Position numbers and translations under genes: made by a program. The notes below the pieces were generated by a model. That model made no database searches, was not told where the DNA came from, and saw nothing but the letters and a program-made list of their open reading frames with translations. A stretch of DNA of 64,000 nucleotides from Albugo candida (Eukaryota), in assembly GCA_040437565.1 (NCBI GenBank), contig JBDOQK010000026.1:124001-188000 (forward strand), in the 5' to 3' direction. How positions within the stretch are numbered: the stretch's first letter is position 1; each line of letters opens with the position of its first letter. Positions 13,128 to 20,884 of the stretch are shown in pieces.

Positions 13128-14634
13128 TTATCGCTCCCCGTGATTAATTTTCACTTCCCTCAAATCTCCTAAACGTGTGCTGCATATTATACCCCGAGAT
13201 CCTACACGAGCACTTGTTTCGGCGCGAAAATAACTTCCATTTGCCATTTTGATACGAAAAGTAACTACATATCACAAAACCACATTCAATAATCGATCAG
13301 CCACTTTTTTTGTGCAACCAAAAAGACCAGTCAACAAAAACTCACAAATGGTAAAGTCCCTCGGGCCTGATAACGCTTCAAAATGTCTCGAGACGTCCGG
13401 AAGATCACCCTATACGATCATTGCAAAATACGTTTCTTTTAATTTTGTGCGTTTCAATCAGCAAGAGACGTTTTACCGAGTGAACAAAGTCTAGGAAACT
13501 GCTGTGACCGATCACAATACTCTCCATTTCATAACCCAACAGTCGCGCGTAGGCAGTAGATCTGTATGTAAAAATGTATCCTGGGATTTCGGTACTCAGC
13601 AGTGCAATAAGATCGCAGCATTGCTCGCATAACTCCTGATATATATGTAATTGCTGTACTTCTTGTTTTAAGTTCTCCACAAATTCTTTTTTCCGTAAAC
13701 GGGATTTTCTAGAATGATCACGATTCCGCTCACGACTTTTTTCTTCTTTCAATAAAGCGGCCTTTTCTTCTTCCTTCATGACGGCGTATCGTTGATGTGC
13801 ATGGACATTATTCTTCAGCATTGCATTGAGTACTTCAGGTGAAAGTGTTTGTGACCCAAGCTCGTGCTGATGTAGCCAACGATGATGTGGATTATTGGTC
13901 GGACCGAATGGCTGAGATGGTGCAAGCAATCCATTCATTGCAGAGGTATTCGTATGGGGAGTGGAAAGCACTCCTGGCACATTGCCAGCCAGTCCTAAAT
14001 GTGCTATTTTGTTTTCGGTAGGGTGCTGTAATGTGAACAAATTACTGCTTGCCGTGACAGATGGCTGGTTGGGATTATATAATCCTCCGCTACCATTTAA
14101 TCCTGCAGAAGCGTATTCGACAGTGCTTGATTGACCGTATGTCGCCGTCGAGGCATTACTGTTTCCGAAAAGATTCGATGACGCTCCACCCAAACCACTT
14201 CCAATTCCAGCTGGTAATGTCATAGATGTTGCATTGTTCGACGAAGGTGTGTCACGAGGTCGACAAAGGCTTTCTAAGTATTGAGCATTGGCTTGTATTT
14301 TTGCCAATTCCGATGATGAAGGCTGATGCTCTGCTGATTGAGAATAATAAGGACCATTGTGTTCATTAGTACTTGGATGTACACCATTAGTGTCCAACGT
14401 GATTCCCATCAAAGCCGCATACTCTTCCACGGACTGAAAGTTCCCGGGTGTTTCCGCCGAGGCATTCGAGACGCCAGGTACCAGTGAAGCAGAAAAATGA
14501 CTGTGACTGCCGTTGGAGGAAATGTTTGCACGATGTGGAAAATCAGACACCATTTCCATGTCCAAAGCACCTAAATCTTCATCTTCTAAAGACATGTCGA
14601 CATCATTGGTCTGATTTGGTCTTCCAAAACTCAT
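13128..14634 (-). CDS. bZIP transcription factor with C-terminal PAS domain, 3 exons
   Basis: Basic region SRERNRDHSRKSRLRKKEFVENLKQEVQQL, then PAS-like DLIALLS..IFTYRSTAYARLLGYEMESIVIGHSSFLDFVH. Two downstream GT-AG introns extend it with GDLPDVSRHFEAL and TFRIKMANGSYFRAETSAR to TAA at 13128-13130. Confidence 0.82.
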
Positions 14635-15146
14635 CGTATCGATAATATTATTTCTCAGTGACAGGATAAGTAGTATTACTTATAATGCAGCAAGTTAAAA
14701 ATAGCAACAGTGTTGATTGCCCAAGAAAAAAAGAATGAGCTCAAATGTGGTACGTTAGCGGTGGGAAACAAAATATTATCACATGGATCCTAAGTGCGCC
14801 TTGGCAAGAACGTACTTTCGCGTTCATCCCTAACATATTCAACTCTTAACGGCCATCGGGTGATGCAATGGTCTTGAATTGGTATAGAGCACCGTGCGTC
14901 TTATCACGTAAGAAATATTTATTTCGGATACATTGCTCAAGATAAACCTCAGCCGTATAGAACGAAAATCATTCTGTAGATCTCGAAGCCGTCTCACTCT
15001 CTCGCACCCTCTAAGCAGCTGCTCAGAACCTTTAAAATAAACTGCTTATGATCTATCCAATTTCGTTCCAACCGTCACTATTCGTTAATTGTCAACACTT
15101 ATGCTACATATAGAATCACTCTTGTTCAAGTCGATCAATTGATTAA

Positions 15147-18100
15147 ATGATCCTCTTAGACTTTGAGGCTCTCCAAAACTTACCACGACAAGAGATTCTG
15201 CCAATTGACCAAATCCATTTGTATTCTGATGTTGGAGGGCATGCATCGGACTTCACAAAGAGCACAAGCTCCATGTCTTCATCCAGTCAGTCATTCGCAC
15301 TCCAGCCTAGAGTAGCTCGTCGGTACGAGTTTTATACGCCTACTTTATCTGAAGAGAGCTTGGACACCCGAGATGAAGCTTCTGTCTTTTCTCCAACTCA
15401 GGAGCAGCGGGTAGAGATTCCCCGTCGTCGGAGGTGATAAAACAATAAACTCTATATGCCTGTACACATCATCCATCAAACAATTTTGTTGCTTCGTAGG
15501 CAAAGGTTACGTACAATCAGCGCCGGCGAATTAGGTGTGATTATTGAGGACAAGGAGAATCATACGCCCCTGAAGTCGATTTTTTCACCTGAGTTCTCGT
15601 CCAAATTCGTGCTCAATTCGGAAGGTCGTGTGTGTGATGGACACACAAATCAACTAGTGAGCAAGGAAATGATACGAGCTCATGGTGAAGTAATTGTCGC
15701 AGCCTTGATTACTTACGTGCACACCCAAATGTTGCAGGAGTATCTTTTTGTTGAGCAGGTAATTCCAGCGCTTGACTATGATGTGGAGCGTGTGCCATTT
15801 ACTTCGTCTTGTGGAATTATGGAGTCGGTTATCAGCAATACCAAGATGATAGTTGGCTCTCAATTCAGCGACATGTCAGCTTCTATTTGCTCTACGACTG
15901 ATGGATTCCGTACAATGATTGACACCTCTGTCCCACGTTGTGTCTTTCATACATCAGCTGATTACAGTGTAGCCGAAAAGCTGCTTGTATTTGTTTGCAG
16001 CTCGCGAGGATTGAGTTGTGGAATCTGGAGTCGCTCGATCATGCTGAATGATGGAGTGAATACCGGCTCGATGATCCCTTATTTCCAACAAGCACTGGCA
16101 CTTGGGTATGGTGTCCTGGTCATGAATCCCAACATGAATGCACAAATGATGATTGATAAAAATGGAAACCATTCCAAAGTTGCTATTGAAGGTTCTTCGA
16201 CTCAGGAAGAACATGTGGAACACGTCTGTCAAAATTATATATTTCCATCAGCGGCACAAAAGATTCATTTTATTGCTTACGGTTATGGTGGGCAACTGGT
16301 AACTGATCTGATTAACAAATATTTTCACGAATTGAAAAATCGGCTAGGAAACGTGGCATTGATCGAATCAAATCACAAGATAGATGCAAAATGGTCTTCA
16401 TTTTCTCAGCGATTTTTCTCCGAGCATAGTATTTGCTGGCGACAGAGTCAGCATATGTTGATAAATTCTGTTTTATCACGAGGGAGTCATCCTTCAGATG
16501 GAAACGAAAGCGTGACCAGAGGGATACGGAATACGATAAATATCTCAGAAATGCTAGAGACTCGTGAGACTCGTCAATCTAAATTACAGAACGGGATTTT
16601 GTATCGAGGTCCTGCAGCTAATTCAGGTGGCTATCCAGCCACGAATGGTATGAACAGCATTGGATGTTTGTGCTTATCGGCTGGATCATCGGCAAAAAAT
16701 GGTGGCGTCATGAATCCAGCGTATACGACCCATATAGTGCGAGAAGCGGTTTTTGAGTTTTTGGCAGCTCCAAGTACGTACGAGTATGAGCATCAGATAT
16801 CTCGCAAAGTACGGTTGCGACGTCGTATTAGTGAGAAGATTGGGCTGAATGGGCCAGGCGAGCGCAAAAATGCTCGATCATCGCAATCAAATTCAGCGGC
16901 ATTTTTGGGTCTCAGCCAAAGAAAGTCGTGCACCGGAAATACAGATCAATCCATTGAGAGGATCGGCATCGATGATTTCGATTTATTGCATGTAGTTGGA
17001 CGGGGCGCGTTCGGAAAAGTAATGTTAGTTCGCCGAAAATCAGAATTTGTCCATAGCAGAGATACATCGATGAAGAAAAAAAGCAAATTCGGATTCCTGC
17101 AGACGCTCACGAATGGATTCACGGGTCAAGGTTTCGTTACAAAGGATTCGCAAGACAGATATCAGAAAAACGAGATGTCTGAAAACGGGCGCGTCTATGC
17201 GATGAAAGTGATACAAAAATCTGCTGTGTTCAAAAAAAGGCAAGTTGAACATACCAAGTCCGAACGTCGAATCTTGCAAAGCATAAATCACCCTTTCATT
17301 GTACAACTGCGATACGCGTTTCAAACGCGAACAAAGTTGTATTTTGTCATGGATTACTATCAAGGTGGCAGTCTGAATTTCCACCTGACAAGCTTAAAGG
17401 TATTCACCGAGGCCATGACCAGATTCTATGCCGCCCAATTGGTCCTTGCAATCTCTCATTTACACACATATAACATCGTGTATCGTGATTTGAAACCCGA
17501 CAATATTCTTATGGATGAGGAAGGATATCTGGCTTTGGCAGATTTTGGGTTATCTCAAGATCGTTATGATCCAAAAGGAGGTCTTCTCACATTCTGTGGC
17601 ACAGCAGAGTACATTGCACCTGAACTTATTCGTCGAATACCTTATGGAAAGTCTGTGGACTATTGGAGTTTGGGGATTCTCATTTTTGAGATGCTGGCTG
17701 GGTTCACACCATTTTTCCATTATAATCGGCAGCACAATTTCAGAAATATTCTAGACCTCCCATTACAATTTCCACCGACATTTTCCGATGACGTGAAATC
17801 TCTCTTGCGTGCTTTGCTCGTCAGAGACCCAAGCAAACGACTCGGTTCCGGGCAGTGTGGTGTTCAGGAGATCAAAGATTACGCGTTCTTCTCTAGTATT
17901 GACTGGGAGCAACTATACAAGCGCCAAATTCGAGCACCTTACCAACCACGTGTGCGCGAAATGGAGGATGTCTCAAATGTGCCTNNNNNNNNNNNNNNNN
18001 NNNNNNNNNNNNNNNNNNNNNNNNNNNNNNNNNNNNNNNNNNNNNNNNNNNNNNNNNNNNNNNNNNNNNNNNNNNNNNNNNNNNTGAGATGCTGGCTGGG

Positions 18101-18505
18101 TTCACACCATTTTTCCATTATAATCGGCAGCACAATTTCAGAAATATTCTAGACCTCCCATTACAATTTCCACCGACATTTTCCGATGACGTGAAATCTC
18201 TCTTGCGTGCTTTGCTCGTCAGAGACCCAAGCAAACGACTCGGTTCCGGGCAGTGTGGTGTTCAGGAGATCAAAGATTACGCGTTCTTCTCTAGTATTGA
18301 CTGGGAGCAACTATACAAGCGCCAAATTCGAGCACCTTACCAACCACGTGTGCGCGAAATGGAGGATGTCTCAAATGTGCCTGTTGTTTTCAAACACGAG
18401 GAAGCTAGGGATTCCGTATCGAGCGAGGTCGATGAAGCAAGCCATCAGGTGTTCGACGGTTTTACGTACATAGATCCGTGGCAATCGCAAGAAATAAGGG
18501 TGTGA
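15147..18505 (+). CDS. AGC-family Ser/Thr kinase with N-terminal FAM172/Arb2-like alpha/beta-hydrolase-fold domain
   Basis: Exon 1 15147-15433, intron to about 15499. FAM172-like motifs (GIWSRSIMLNDGVNTGSMIPYFQQALALGYGVLVMNPN, EEH, FIAYGYGG, VALIESNH) and kinase motifs GRGAFGKV, YAMK, YRDLKPDN, DFG, TFCGTAEYIAPE and C-terminal FDGFTY. The gap at 17985-18084 has duplicated flanks. Confidence 0.9.
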
Positions 18506-18531: not shown

Positions 18532-19583
18532 CTATTGCCAGTGTTTGGCCGGTTTCATATGAAAGTTCTCGTACAGTCGAAGTAAGTTTCGTTGGAGCAT
18601 TGCTACGGTCACTTTTCCAACAAGTGGAACGTACTTAACGCCTGGGATCTACGTAAGACCCATGAGCTCAGAGCCTTTTAGTACGAGAAAAAGTATTGGT
18701 GTACCTTGAGGAGGTTAGCTTCGTCCACATTCTTGTAAGAAGACACGTTGATTACAACCGTGTTTTCAGCAACCCAGTCAAGCGGTAACTTGTAGTCTTT
18801 TACGGGTACACCAGTTATGATTACGTGCGATTTTTTGCAAGCACTTTCATTCGTCTCCTGGGTCTGGTCATGTCAACGTAAGAAAATAGCCAAAATATTG
18901 ATAAAAAAACGTACTTGAATGAGTTTCCCACGGCGATACAAGTACAATGAGTCGACATCTATACTATACACATCCGCTCCGTCATTTGCGAGCATTGCAG
19001 CCAATGGTCGTCCGACAATGTCACTTCGGTTGATGACTGTAATATTTTTACCATTTAGATGGTCACCTTCTGGATTTGCCTTATCATATACACTTAAATA
19101 TTCCAAAATTTTAACAATTGCCAACGGTGTACACGGTAGTACACATTTCTGTGTCTTTTGGTCATCCATAAAACGAATATTACGATAAAGATTCCCTCGG
19201 TAGTACTGGCACAGCCCTTCAGCATCCTTTTTTATAGCAATAGAATCACGTAAGAAGTCATCCATAGTTCCTCCAAAAAACGATGGAAAGTTGCCGAAAC
19301 AAGGGTAGTACACGATGATACCGTGCACTTCTGGATCATCATTAGCAAGAGTCAATGCATCCATTAAATTATCTTTCTCAACCTCTCTTAGCTCATAGCG
19401 AATTCCACTGGCACAGCAAGTTTTGCCTGTCCAATCAGCATACTTTCTAGCAGCCTTGTCATCGTTTGCTAAGAATCCTACGAGCTTTGGCCCCTTTCCA
19501 TTCAGCTCCTTAGTAATGTAGGATCGAACAGCGTCATTAAACGGAGCAGCTATCAAACCAGCATCGATCTTTTCACCCATCAT
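18532..19583 (-). CDS. MTD1: NAD-dependent methylenetetrahydrofolate dehydrogenase (yeast MTD1 type), 3 exons
   Basis: GIIVYYP, LYRNIRFMD, LPCTPLAIVKILEYL, INRSDIVGRPLAAMLANDGADVYSID; last exon YVPLVGKVTVAMLQRNLLRL ends at TAG 18532-18534. Confidence 0.9.
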
Positions 19584-19656: not shown

Positions 19657-20884
19657 TTATCTCTTTGCCAAGTCCTTGGCAGTTCGGTGCAGGTGCAGAC
19701 TCCAATCCATTTTCGTTTGCGTAACTATACACATATTTACTGTAAACGATTGAAAATTGGGTAGAAAATGGTACCTGGCATGATCCGACGCATCTCTTTC
19801 AATGTTTCGTGAGACATGTTGATGTACAATTCGTCCAAAGAGTTCTTTCAAGTGCAACATATAAGTGTGTGTAGCGGTAGGATGATGGCAGTCGATTACC
19901 TGAAGTGAGTCTTCTGCGTCTTTGATAACATGAACAACCTCTTCTCCGAGCTCAAGTGGCGTCTTATTGAGGGAAAGTGTCTGCTGTACCTTCTTGGTGT
20001 CTTGCAATTGCAAATTGCCATTTTCGTAATAGTGAACGTGCAAATTGATCTCACCAGACATCACATTCGGCTGAACTCCAACATCCACTTCCCATCGACT
20101 CTTCCATTGTCCACTCCTAATGATAATGAATTTACATGATATGCAGTATGCCAAAATGACGCATTTCCCACCAATAATTACGCAGGTTCACTCGCTCCGT
20201 ACACATCAAGATAAGGAGTTTTGATTCTTTAGCATATACAGCCGTGTTTGCTCTATGCAGTTGTAGCCTGAGCCAAAGGTATTCCCCATATATGCACCAT
20301 ACACATACTCATTCATGTACTCTCGAGCTTCGTAGTCCTGCAATGCATTCTCAATGGCAAGCCTGATAACGCTTAATTGGAATGGTTTTCTCCATTGACA
20401 TCAAACAAAACTCTGAACCTTTCATCGCGCAAAATGCCTGACGTATCAATTTTCAATTCTGCCGATGAAATTTCATTGAGCTCCTACGCGCATTGCTATT
20501 AGATATTTGAACGTACAATAAAGACACGAACCTGTGTGAAATGGTCGAATCCATACATAAGGTTTGTCCGTGGGTCAACATAGTGTTTCTCATCAATTTG
20601 ACTTTCTTGGCAGATCAGCAGCTGCGACATTGACTTAATATGAAAACTTTATACTGATATCGGAAGCATACTTTGTGATCCTGATTGGGAATAGCAACCG
20701 CAAAATAATTTGTATGATGGTAGTGCTCAAATAATGTCTTCAGATAATCACTCGAGAAGAATTGCTCAGGCAGCAGCTCTTTGAGCTCCTTCAGCACTTC
20801 ATGAGTTTGGCCAGGCGGGCTTGACAGTAGAAAATCCCTCAATATCAATCGAGCTTGATCCTCGGAAATGCTTGTGTTGATCAT
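19657..20884 (-). CDS. CAPZA: F-actin capping protein alpha subunit, multi-exon
   Basis: FLLSSPPGQTHEVLKEL at the N-terminus; SGQWKSRW, VHYYENGNLQL and VTQTKMDW in later exons. Confidence 0.9.

Follow-up and report, generated by a model that had tools for sequence, protein, structure and literature searches.

An Albugo candida gene joining a putative pseudo-hydrolase Arb2 domain to an AGC kinase, the orthologue of a known oomycete type

What does an Arb2 domain do when it stands in front of a protein kinase? The question is raised by a gene on the forward strand (15147-18505) of a 64,000-nucleotide (nt) stretch of Albugo candida DNA from contig JBDOQK010000026.1 (the window; all coordinates are positions in it, 1 being its first letter). 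This single gene codes for a disordered N-terminus, an Arb2 domain, a flexible linker, and an AGC kinase. The architecture is already known, and the gene is the Albugo orthologue of a known kind: Arb2 was reported in 2010 as a novel kinase accessory domain in two AGC proteins of Phytophthora infestans (Judelson & Ah-Fong, 2010; PMC3019232). A preliminary description of the window had stated that no characterised protein with this architecture was known, which holds for function, as no functional study of an Arb2-AGC kinase turned up in full-text literature searches, and fails for the architecture itself. The protein is the orthologue of the oomycete Arb2-AGC kinase PITG_06776; in our reading, to which we give a probability of roughly 0.55, the Arb2 domain would serve an active RSK/AKT/SGK-like AGC kinase as a regulatory or docking module without catalysis of its own. 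With respect to the 2010 account, four points are new: all three catalytic triad positions are lost in this orthologue group and a FYVE-bearing paralogue keeps the Ser; the kinase-linked Arb2 domains form a single clade apart from FAM172A; the fusion is also present outside the oomycetes, in Nannochloropsis oceanica; and the partners found in the clade (FYVE, PH, C2, and RhoGAP) argue for membrane signalling and not for a chromatin role. Oomycetes include major pathogens of crops and fish, and those of their kinases that bear accessory domains peculiar to the lineage are candidate targets for selective drugs.

The Arb2 domain and its catalytic positions

The FAM172-type Arb2 domain, alpha/beta-hydrolase-like in fold, was located at 15588-16799 (+). 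The preliminary description had recognized it by a series of motifs, and all of them were found in order: FVLNSEGR (15606-15629), GIWSRS (16020-16037), VMNPN (16119-16133), EEH (16206-16214), AYGYGG (16275-16292), (A)LIESNH (16359-16376), LSAG (16674-16685), and VFEFL (16749-16763). The FAM172/Arb2 identity was then confirmed by profile and by fold. Membership in the family was established by a Pfam match to Arb2 (PF22749) of 97.1 bits (cut-off 26.8; E 1.4e-27), far better than chance would give, and no histone deacetylase (HDAC) domain was detected in the protein by Pfam. An exhaustive HMMER search of a representative library, using the N-terminal part of 433 amino acids (aa) as query, retrieved 862 relatives at E<=1e-3, including a sponge "cotranscriptional regulator ARB2A-like" protein (E 1.7e-49), a mollusc "FAM172A homolog", and proteins from Capsaspora and fungal Arb2 proteins; by BLASTP, the mollusc "FAM172A homolog" P0157 showed 33% identity over 150 aa (E 2e-28). 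A feature search in the Protein Atlas found again only FAM172/Arb2 clusters. A search for "shorter" homologues gave three matches, all of them oomycete fragments and none of them FAM172A, which was reached by the representative HMMER search.

The AlphaFold2 model of the N-terminal part, built on a 97-sequence alignment, reached a mean predicted local distance difference test score (pLDDT) of 79 and a predicted template modelling score (pTM) of 0.78, with a confident core. Three regions were disordered in it (residues 1-15, 101-132, and 335-384 of P0001, the 828-aa translation from 15501, which lacks a stop codon), the last two being insertions in the Arb2 domain. Comparison of this model with known structures by VIA-align gave the Arb2 domains of Clr3 (5ikk, Z 19.1, 226 residues) and Hda1 (5j8j, Z 17.2, 220 residues; further Hda1 structures 16.6 and 16.3) above generic alpha/beta hydrolases, which scored Z <=14.7, and the top three Foldseek matches were also Hda1 and Clr3. 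These relatives surfaced by fold comparison only, as the N-terminal half, searched by sequence against the PDB, gave 0 matches at E<=10. A homodimer prediction for the Arb2 domain scored 0.00 and gave no verdict, being evidence neither way. In the full-length AlphaFold2 model (pLDDT 72, pTM 0.56) the Arb2 domain and the kinase were each confident.

The preliminary description had given AHSYGG as the nucleophile elbow of the family. This is indeed what the 97-sequence alignment shows as majority consensus, AHSYGG ... TDSVH ... SAGxxxHExTS, with Ser, Asp, and His placed on the customary alpha/beta-hydrolase elements, and FAM172A-like members carry AHS[YF]GG. The alignment columns placed the Gly of AYGYGG at the Ser position, so that the Ser is lost, as had been noticed. 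The other two positions were found to be replaced as well: the family acid by the Glu of LIESNH, and the family catalytic His by the Pro of NPAYT (16713-16727, +), whose spacing to the following VF helix is identical. With Gly, Glu, and Pro at these positions the domain falls outside the FAM172A-like, putatively active subgroup, and the earlier claim of a catalytically dead Arb2 domain came out strengthened. In a 2018 PNAS paper on FAM172A, an esterase-like G-x-S-x-G motif was reportedly discussed.

To see how general this loss is, a census was made of 219 Arb2 domains covering at least 70% of a local profile, partial matches being dropped; they came from the 244 proteins, out of 303 fetched, that matched this profile. 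The complete Ser-Asp-His set was present in none of the 78 kinase-linked domains (0/78) and in 82 of the 141 domains without a detected kinase. Among the kinase-linked domains, Glu occupies the acid position in 76 and the elbow Ser is retained in 19. The orthologue group of this gene has mostly the combination Gly-Glu-Pro (35 kinase-linked sequences), with a few variants such as Asp-Glu-Pro. Outside the triad, residues that are invariant or nearly invariant across the family are kept (G174, W176, R178, N209, H238, S393, and G395, in query numbering), and the Albugo and Phytophthora domains share about 50% identity, which argues for a conserved non-catalytic role. On the basis of these alignments, assignment of the domain as a putative pseudo-hydrolase is well supported.

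Hydrolysis might nevertheless be achieved by non-canonical residues, which would make the protein a bifunctional hydrolase-kinase. The Glu shared by nearly all kinase-linked domains would fit such an activity, and IES[SN]H provides a Ser and a His nearby. However, the elbow residue is Gly and the His position is Pro in this orthologue group, and we know of no alpha/beta hydrolase that works without an elbow nucleophile; residual enzyme activity is thus highly improbable.

The kinase, its relatives, and the proposed role

The kinase catalytic domain (16968-17984, +; Pfam Pkinase E 3e-63) is complete. As had been described, it comes after the basic stretch RKVRLRRR (16803-16826). The motifs that follow are GRGAFG, YAMKV, YRDLKPDN, DFG, TFCGT, APE, and FDGFTY, and all catalytic motifs were found intact, namely the Gly loop, the VAIK Lys (in YAMKV), the alphaC Glu (in SERRIL), [HY]RD..N, DFG, and APE. 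The activation-loop TFCGT lies at 17589-17603. In the C-terminal tail there is a turn-motif-like DSVSS (18410-18424) and the hydrophobic motif FDGFTY (18452-18469), which conforms to F-x-x-F-[ST]-[YF] and whose F906, F909, and Y911 are invariant in 17 aligned sequences; the Pfam Pkinase_C match was weak (16.5 bits vs a cut-off of 20.9). In a PDB sequence search the best matches were the N-terminal kinases of RSK1/RSK2 (2.3e-85), AKT2 (2e-82), SGK1 (4.3e-82), and yeast PKA (3.6e-81). Since these scores are too close to one another, no AGC subfamily was assigned. Between strands beta2 and beta3 (17040-17195) the kinase carries an insertion of about 47 aa, basic, rich in Ser/Thr and Gly, and predicted to be disordered; according to the alignment it is lineage-specific, reaching its greatest length in Albugo, with a shorter version in Phytophthora and none in Saprolegniales. 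With these motifs, the kinase would be active and, as other AGC kinases, would be switched on by phosphorylation of the activation loop (at a PDK1-type Thr) and of the hydrophobic motif.

The fusion was found across the oomycetes and also in Nannochloropsis, in the survey of eukaryotes that had been proposed as a check. Both PF22749 and PF00069 were present in 30 of the 30 best homologue matches, which came from Albugo, Phytophthora, Bremia, Peronospora, Plasmopara, Pythium, and Globisporangium, and proteins from the Saprolegniales (Achlya, Thraustotheca, and Aphanomyces) appeared at lower scores in the same list. This conservation from Albugo to the Saprolegniales suggests that the gene is probably important. 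Most of the proteins from Phytophthora, Bremia, Pythium, and Globisporangium showed 49-53% identity over 96-100% of the query. The protein is a collinear Arb2-linker-AGC kinase without a FYVE finger and bears the signature AYGYGG / IES[SN]H / [SN]PA[YF]T, common to 35 kinase-linked sequences, which places it in the group of PITG_06776.

A second group of paralogues carries a FYVE finger between the Arb2 domain and the kinase. It includes P0041 of A. candida (883 aa) and PHYSODRAFT_360424 of P. sojae, with P0046 and P0068 as relatives. These proteins keep the elbow Ser (GYSYGG), have Glu at the acid position, and show the canonical FYVE motif RRHHCR; they also have a His near the catalytic position, two alignments disagreeing on its being catalytic. 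Judging from these residues, a paralogue of the P0041 type could be an active hydrolase-kinase.

Further arrangements were Arb2-C2-FYVE-kinase and, in one environmental form, three PH domains followed by Arb2 and a kinase; Arb2 and Pkinase occurred together in nine of the 34 long representatives scanned. Outside the oomycetes, an Arb2-AGC fusion of the eustigmatophyte Nannochloropsis oceanica was collinear over both domains (33% identity, 760 columns, E 2e-105). The non-oomycete fusions (P0218 and P0274 from N. oceanica, and P0187, P0190, P0204, P0213, and P0232) have GYGNGA at the elbow and no triad. A profile search seeded with distant kinase-linked members returned only Nannochloropsis-like sequences and generic kinases; it did not add another named taxon that has the fusion. 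In a FastTree phylogeny of the 219 census domains (297 columns, LG+gamma), all 78 kinase-linked domains fell into one clade (123 tips, support 0.956), separate from the FAM172A-like proteins, and 43 other tips of this clade were fragments or other multidomain signalling proteins. Two proteins of the same clade had other partners: P0130 from Aphanomyces astaci (2041 aa) is rich in PH domains and has two Arb2 matches, and P0198 from P. cactorum (797 aa) is an Arb2-RhoGAP protein.

These relatives bear on the possibility that the Arb2 domain is a ligand sensor, in which a non-hydrolysing pocket would bind a small molecule (a lipid, an acyl ester, or similar) and, once occupied, would act allosterically to release or inhibit the kinase. 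GIWSR, a motif of the oxyanion region, is kept, as is the His of EEH that is invariant across the family, the sister paralogue has both the Ser and a canonical FYVE motif, and among the generic structural neighbours lipases and esterases come closest. Against this, the lipase matches simply reflect a shared fold, and the solved Arb2 domains have been described as protein-interaction modules, which leaves the ligand sensor an improbable explanation. Equally tentative is a broader evolutionary proposal, namely that the kinase-linked Arb2 domain is an invention shared by stramenopiles (oomycetes, Nannochloropsis, and environmental sequences) and placed in the position of a PH or PX domain, with two forms, a dead one and a FYVE-linked one that keeps the Ser, the dead form being a decoy or sensor descendant. 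According to this proposal, the FYVE-linked form, with its Ser and perhaps a His, could be a hydrolase-kinase or a ligand-gated kinase acting on membranes with phosphatidylinositol 3-phosphate, and the pocket or surface of the dead form would still read the same ligand or partner. Were that partner Argonaute, the kinase would feed directly into RNA silencing.

The preliminary description had favoured a link to Argonaute and chromatin silencing, in which the dead Arb2 domain would tether the kinase to the silencing machinery and the kinase would phosphorylate RNA interference or chromatin factors in the nucleus. That link was drawn from the name of the domain, and it gained no specific support from the comparison with relatives. 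The domain is a true member of the Arb2 family; FAM172A homodimerises and binds AGO2 directly, a bipartite nuclear localisation signal (NLS)/CK2 loop mediating AGO2 import (PMC10205598); the Arb2 domain of Hda1 homodimerises and binds histones (PMC5036196); and the 2010 kinome paper glossed Arb2 as "chromatin association" (PMC3019232). However, the residue of FAM172A required for AGO2 binding sits in its own NLS loop (PMC10205598), and no counterpart of that residue or of the NLS/CK2 loop was located here. The basic patch RKVRLRRR, which had been regarded as NLS-like, is no better a support: it lies in the linker (16800-16967, +; columns 763-830 of alignment A1), is peculiar to Albugo and not conserved in orthologues, and was placed by the full-length model in a helix (522-542) predicted at the Arb2 domain's end, after which the chain is disordered. 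The clade is moreover distinct from the FAM172A-like Ser-Asp-His proteins, its partners are lipid-binding and GTPase-signalling domains (FYVE, PH, C2, and RhoGAP), and the protein has no HDAC domain. A silencing tether is therefore unlikely, somewhat more so than a ligand sensor.

We favour instead a docking role, in which the dead Arb2 domain would occupy the slot held by PH and PX domains in AKT and SGK3 and would probably dock a partner or a second copy of the protein, thereby setting where and when the kinase acts. Since FYVE, PH, C2, and RhoGAP domains are the fusion partners of the nearest Arb2 relatives, membrane or phosphoinositide signalling is likelier than RNA silencing. Several considerations weigh against this reading. 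The role given to the Arb2 domain and the kinase is one that we infer, and the phosphoinositide context would come from paralogues and relatives, the protein itself having no FYVE, PH, or C2 domain. With the triad gone, the pocket might in principle still bind a ligand or carry out some other chemistry. The census is biased, being made of the best matches to the query, with some near-duplicates, and with truncated gene models counted as having no kinase, and the tree was rooted at its midpoint. Finally, the contigs that span both domains (see below) are 7.5-14.9 kb long and come from runs only guessed to be RNA, so that a single transcript is not proven.

Gene structure, assembly gap, and neighbouring genes

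The window has a G+C content of about 42% and belongs to a gapped draft, with 19 runs of 100 N; its proteins show 99-100% identity to public A. candida proteins, which makes the source this white-rust oomycete and not a Phytophthora. The coding sequence was reconstructed as 15147-15433, 15500-17984, and 18383-18505 (287+2485+123 nt), which gives 964 codons plus a stop codon and matches in length the public A. candida protein P0306. Exon 1 (15147-15433, +) codes for a low-complexity N-terminus that is predicted to be disordered (pLDDT about 31 at residues 1-122 of the full-length model). It is separated from exon 2 by a 66-nt intron (15434-15499, +), read from the sequence by its GT at 15434 and AG at 15498-15499, the removal of which preserves the frame and joins AG|G into an Arg codon; unspliced, the upstream open reading frame (ORF) at 15147-15437 terminates in ...PRRRR. 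The first part of exon 2 (15500-17984, +) is one open frame that encodes the Arb2 domain and the linker together with most of the kinase, and its last part (18383-18505, +) codes for the AGC C-terminal tail in 40 codons that end in TGA (18503-18505). The coordinates in the preliminary description began at 15600. The start of the gene lies upstream, either at the ATG at 15147, giving 964 aa, or at the in-frame ATG at 15273, giving 922 aa, and public A. candida proteins fit both: P0306 (964 aa, MILLDF...) and P0004 (922 aa, MSSSSQ...).

The claim of one uninterrupted reading frame was also correct in part: the forward strand is free of stop codons at 15456-17984, and the Arb2 domain is fused to an intact AGC kinase in one exon, as had been described, but the last 40 codons lie in another frame. 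The frame change is due to an assembly artefact at 17985-18382, made up of 100 N (17985-18084) and an exact 298-nt copy (18085-18382) of 17687-17984, which shifts these codons, including the hydrophobic motif, to another frame of the window. Contigs from four public runs (X1, X2, X8, and X12; run type only guessed as RNA) were compared over 15000-17984, and in the four of them the sequence was collinear and unbroken. Exactly 66 nt were absent in the contigs of three runs (X1, X2, and X8, from two studies), and the contig of X12, from a more divergent strain, retained them. In all four runs, position 17984 was joined directly to the sequence at 18383. Because the four contigs bridge these positions, the gap and the duplication inside the kinase are to be considered a scaffolding artefact, outside the gene.

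The same defect was found elsewhere in the window: an exact copy (28-412 nt) of the preceding flank follows 13 of the 19 gaps of 100 N, and a partial copy follows one more. The 13 duplicated flanks are a systematic scaffolding artefact: contig ends that overlapped were put together across a gap of fixed size, and this kind of joining will corrupt any gene spanning a gap. Its effect is visible in the public A. candida model P0305 (976 aa), which begins within the intron (MPVHIIHQ...) and treats GT(17970)...N-gap...AG(18088) as an intron, so that kinase C-lobe sequence is falsely repeated over 97 aa. The correct public form is P0306 (964 aa), P0305 being visibly wrong, and the artefactual duplication in the latter is flagged here. 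With a gapped draft, duplicated flanks, and a wrong public model, the question arises whether the fusion itself could come from faulty assembly or from the false joining of two adjacent genes. However, a single stop-free stretch contains both domains and no gap separates them, the same order is present in dozens of species with independent assemblies, and the contigs of the four runs are collinear, so that an artefactual fusion is the least credible of the explanations considered.

Upstream of the gene, the ORF at 13405-14634 (-), of 409 aa, showed a weak match to a bZIP basic region (PF00170, 25.2 bits vs a cut-off of 27.6), and probably codes for an oomycete bZIP transcription factor. Downstream, fragments of a methylenetetrahydrofolate dehydrogenase/cyclohydrolase (18873-19583, -; PF00763 and PF02882) and of an F-actin capping protein alpha subunit (19657-20154, -; PF01267) look like exons of intron-containing genes.

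Comparison with known systems

The closest counterpart is PITG_06776, described in the 2010 kinome paper as an Arb2-AGC protein with orthologues in other oomycetes, together with the FYVE-bearing PITG_01365 (PMC3019232). That paper reported no orthologue in diatoms, apicomplexans, or ciliates, and its account of these proteins stops at the domain combination, giving neither a triad analysis nor a function (PMC3019232). The P. infestans protein P0009 showed 52% identity to the Albugo protein over 96% of the query and shares AYGYGG, the corresponding IESSH and SPAYT, and the hydrophobic motif; we infer that it is PITG_06776, as it is the only match of P. infestans T30-4 with Arb2 and AGC domains that lacks a FYVE finger. 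The Albugo protein differs from this type in its longer disordered insertions, among them the beta2-beta3 insert of about 47 aa, and in having its own basic patch.

PITG_01365 was used in 2023 to name five P. sojae FYVE kinases, of which PsZFPK1 only was studied (PMC10381902). One of them, PsZFPK4 (360424), is the Arb2-FYVE paralogue, and in that source it is named and not studied (PMC10381902). PITG_01365, PsZFPK4, and P0041, the last one from the same species as the gene described here, belong to the same Arb2 clade and have a closely related AGC kinase, and they differ in the presence of the FYVE finger and in the elbow Ser, which they keep.

Another oomycete AGC kinase, P. sojae PsYPK1, carries a long region at its N-terminus that binds G-alpha and controls nuclear vs cytoplasmic location (PMC7010300), and by analogy it illustrates N-terminal regulation of an AGC kinase in oomycetes. 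PsYPK1 was considered as an orthologue and rejected, because its P. infestans orthologue is given as XP_002900048.1 (PMC7010300) and the Arb2 kinase P0009 is XP_002898881.1. The two were set apart by accession and by description, the authors having found no known domain in PsYPK1 (PMC7010300).

FAM172A/ARB2A proteins belong to the same Pfam family, share the fold, and have the motifs in the same order. They differ in lying outside the kinase-linked clade, in having no kinase, and in keeping the Ser-Asp-His set, which is found in 82 of the 141 non-kinase domains. The Arb2 domains of Hda1 (Saccharomyces cerevisiae) and Clr3 (Schizosaccharomyces pombe) are the best structural matches and also lack the triad, as reported for HDAC Arb2 domains (PMC11878206). 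They work as modules for dimerisation and binding (PMC11878206; PMC5036196). Their identity to the domain described here is 13-14%, and their Arb2 domain is C-terminal to an HDAC, whereas here it is N-terminal to a kinase, so that the protein is not of the Hda1/Clr3 type. Hda1, FAM172A, and the HDAC Arb2 domains are all precedents for Arb2 as a non-catalytic module. On the kinase side, AKT, SGK3, and RSK resemble the protein in the kinase domain (E 1e-82 to 1e-85), the activation-loop Thr, the hydrophobic motif, and the presence of an N-terminal regulatory domain; in AKT and SGK3 this regulatory domain is PH or PX, whereas in the Albugo protein its place would be taken by a pseudo-enzyme with an alpha/beta-hydrolase fold.

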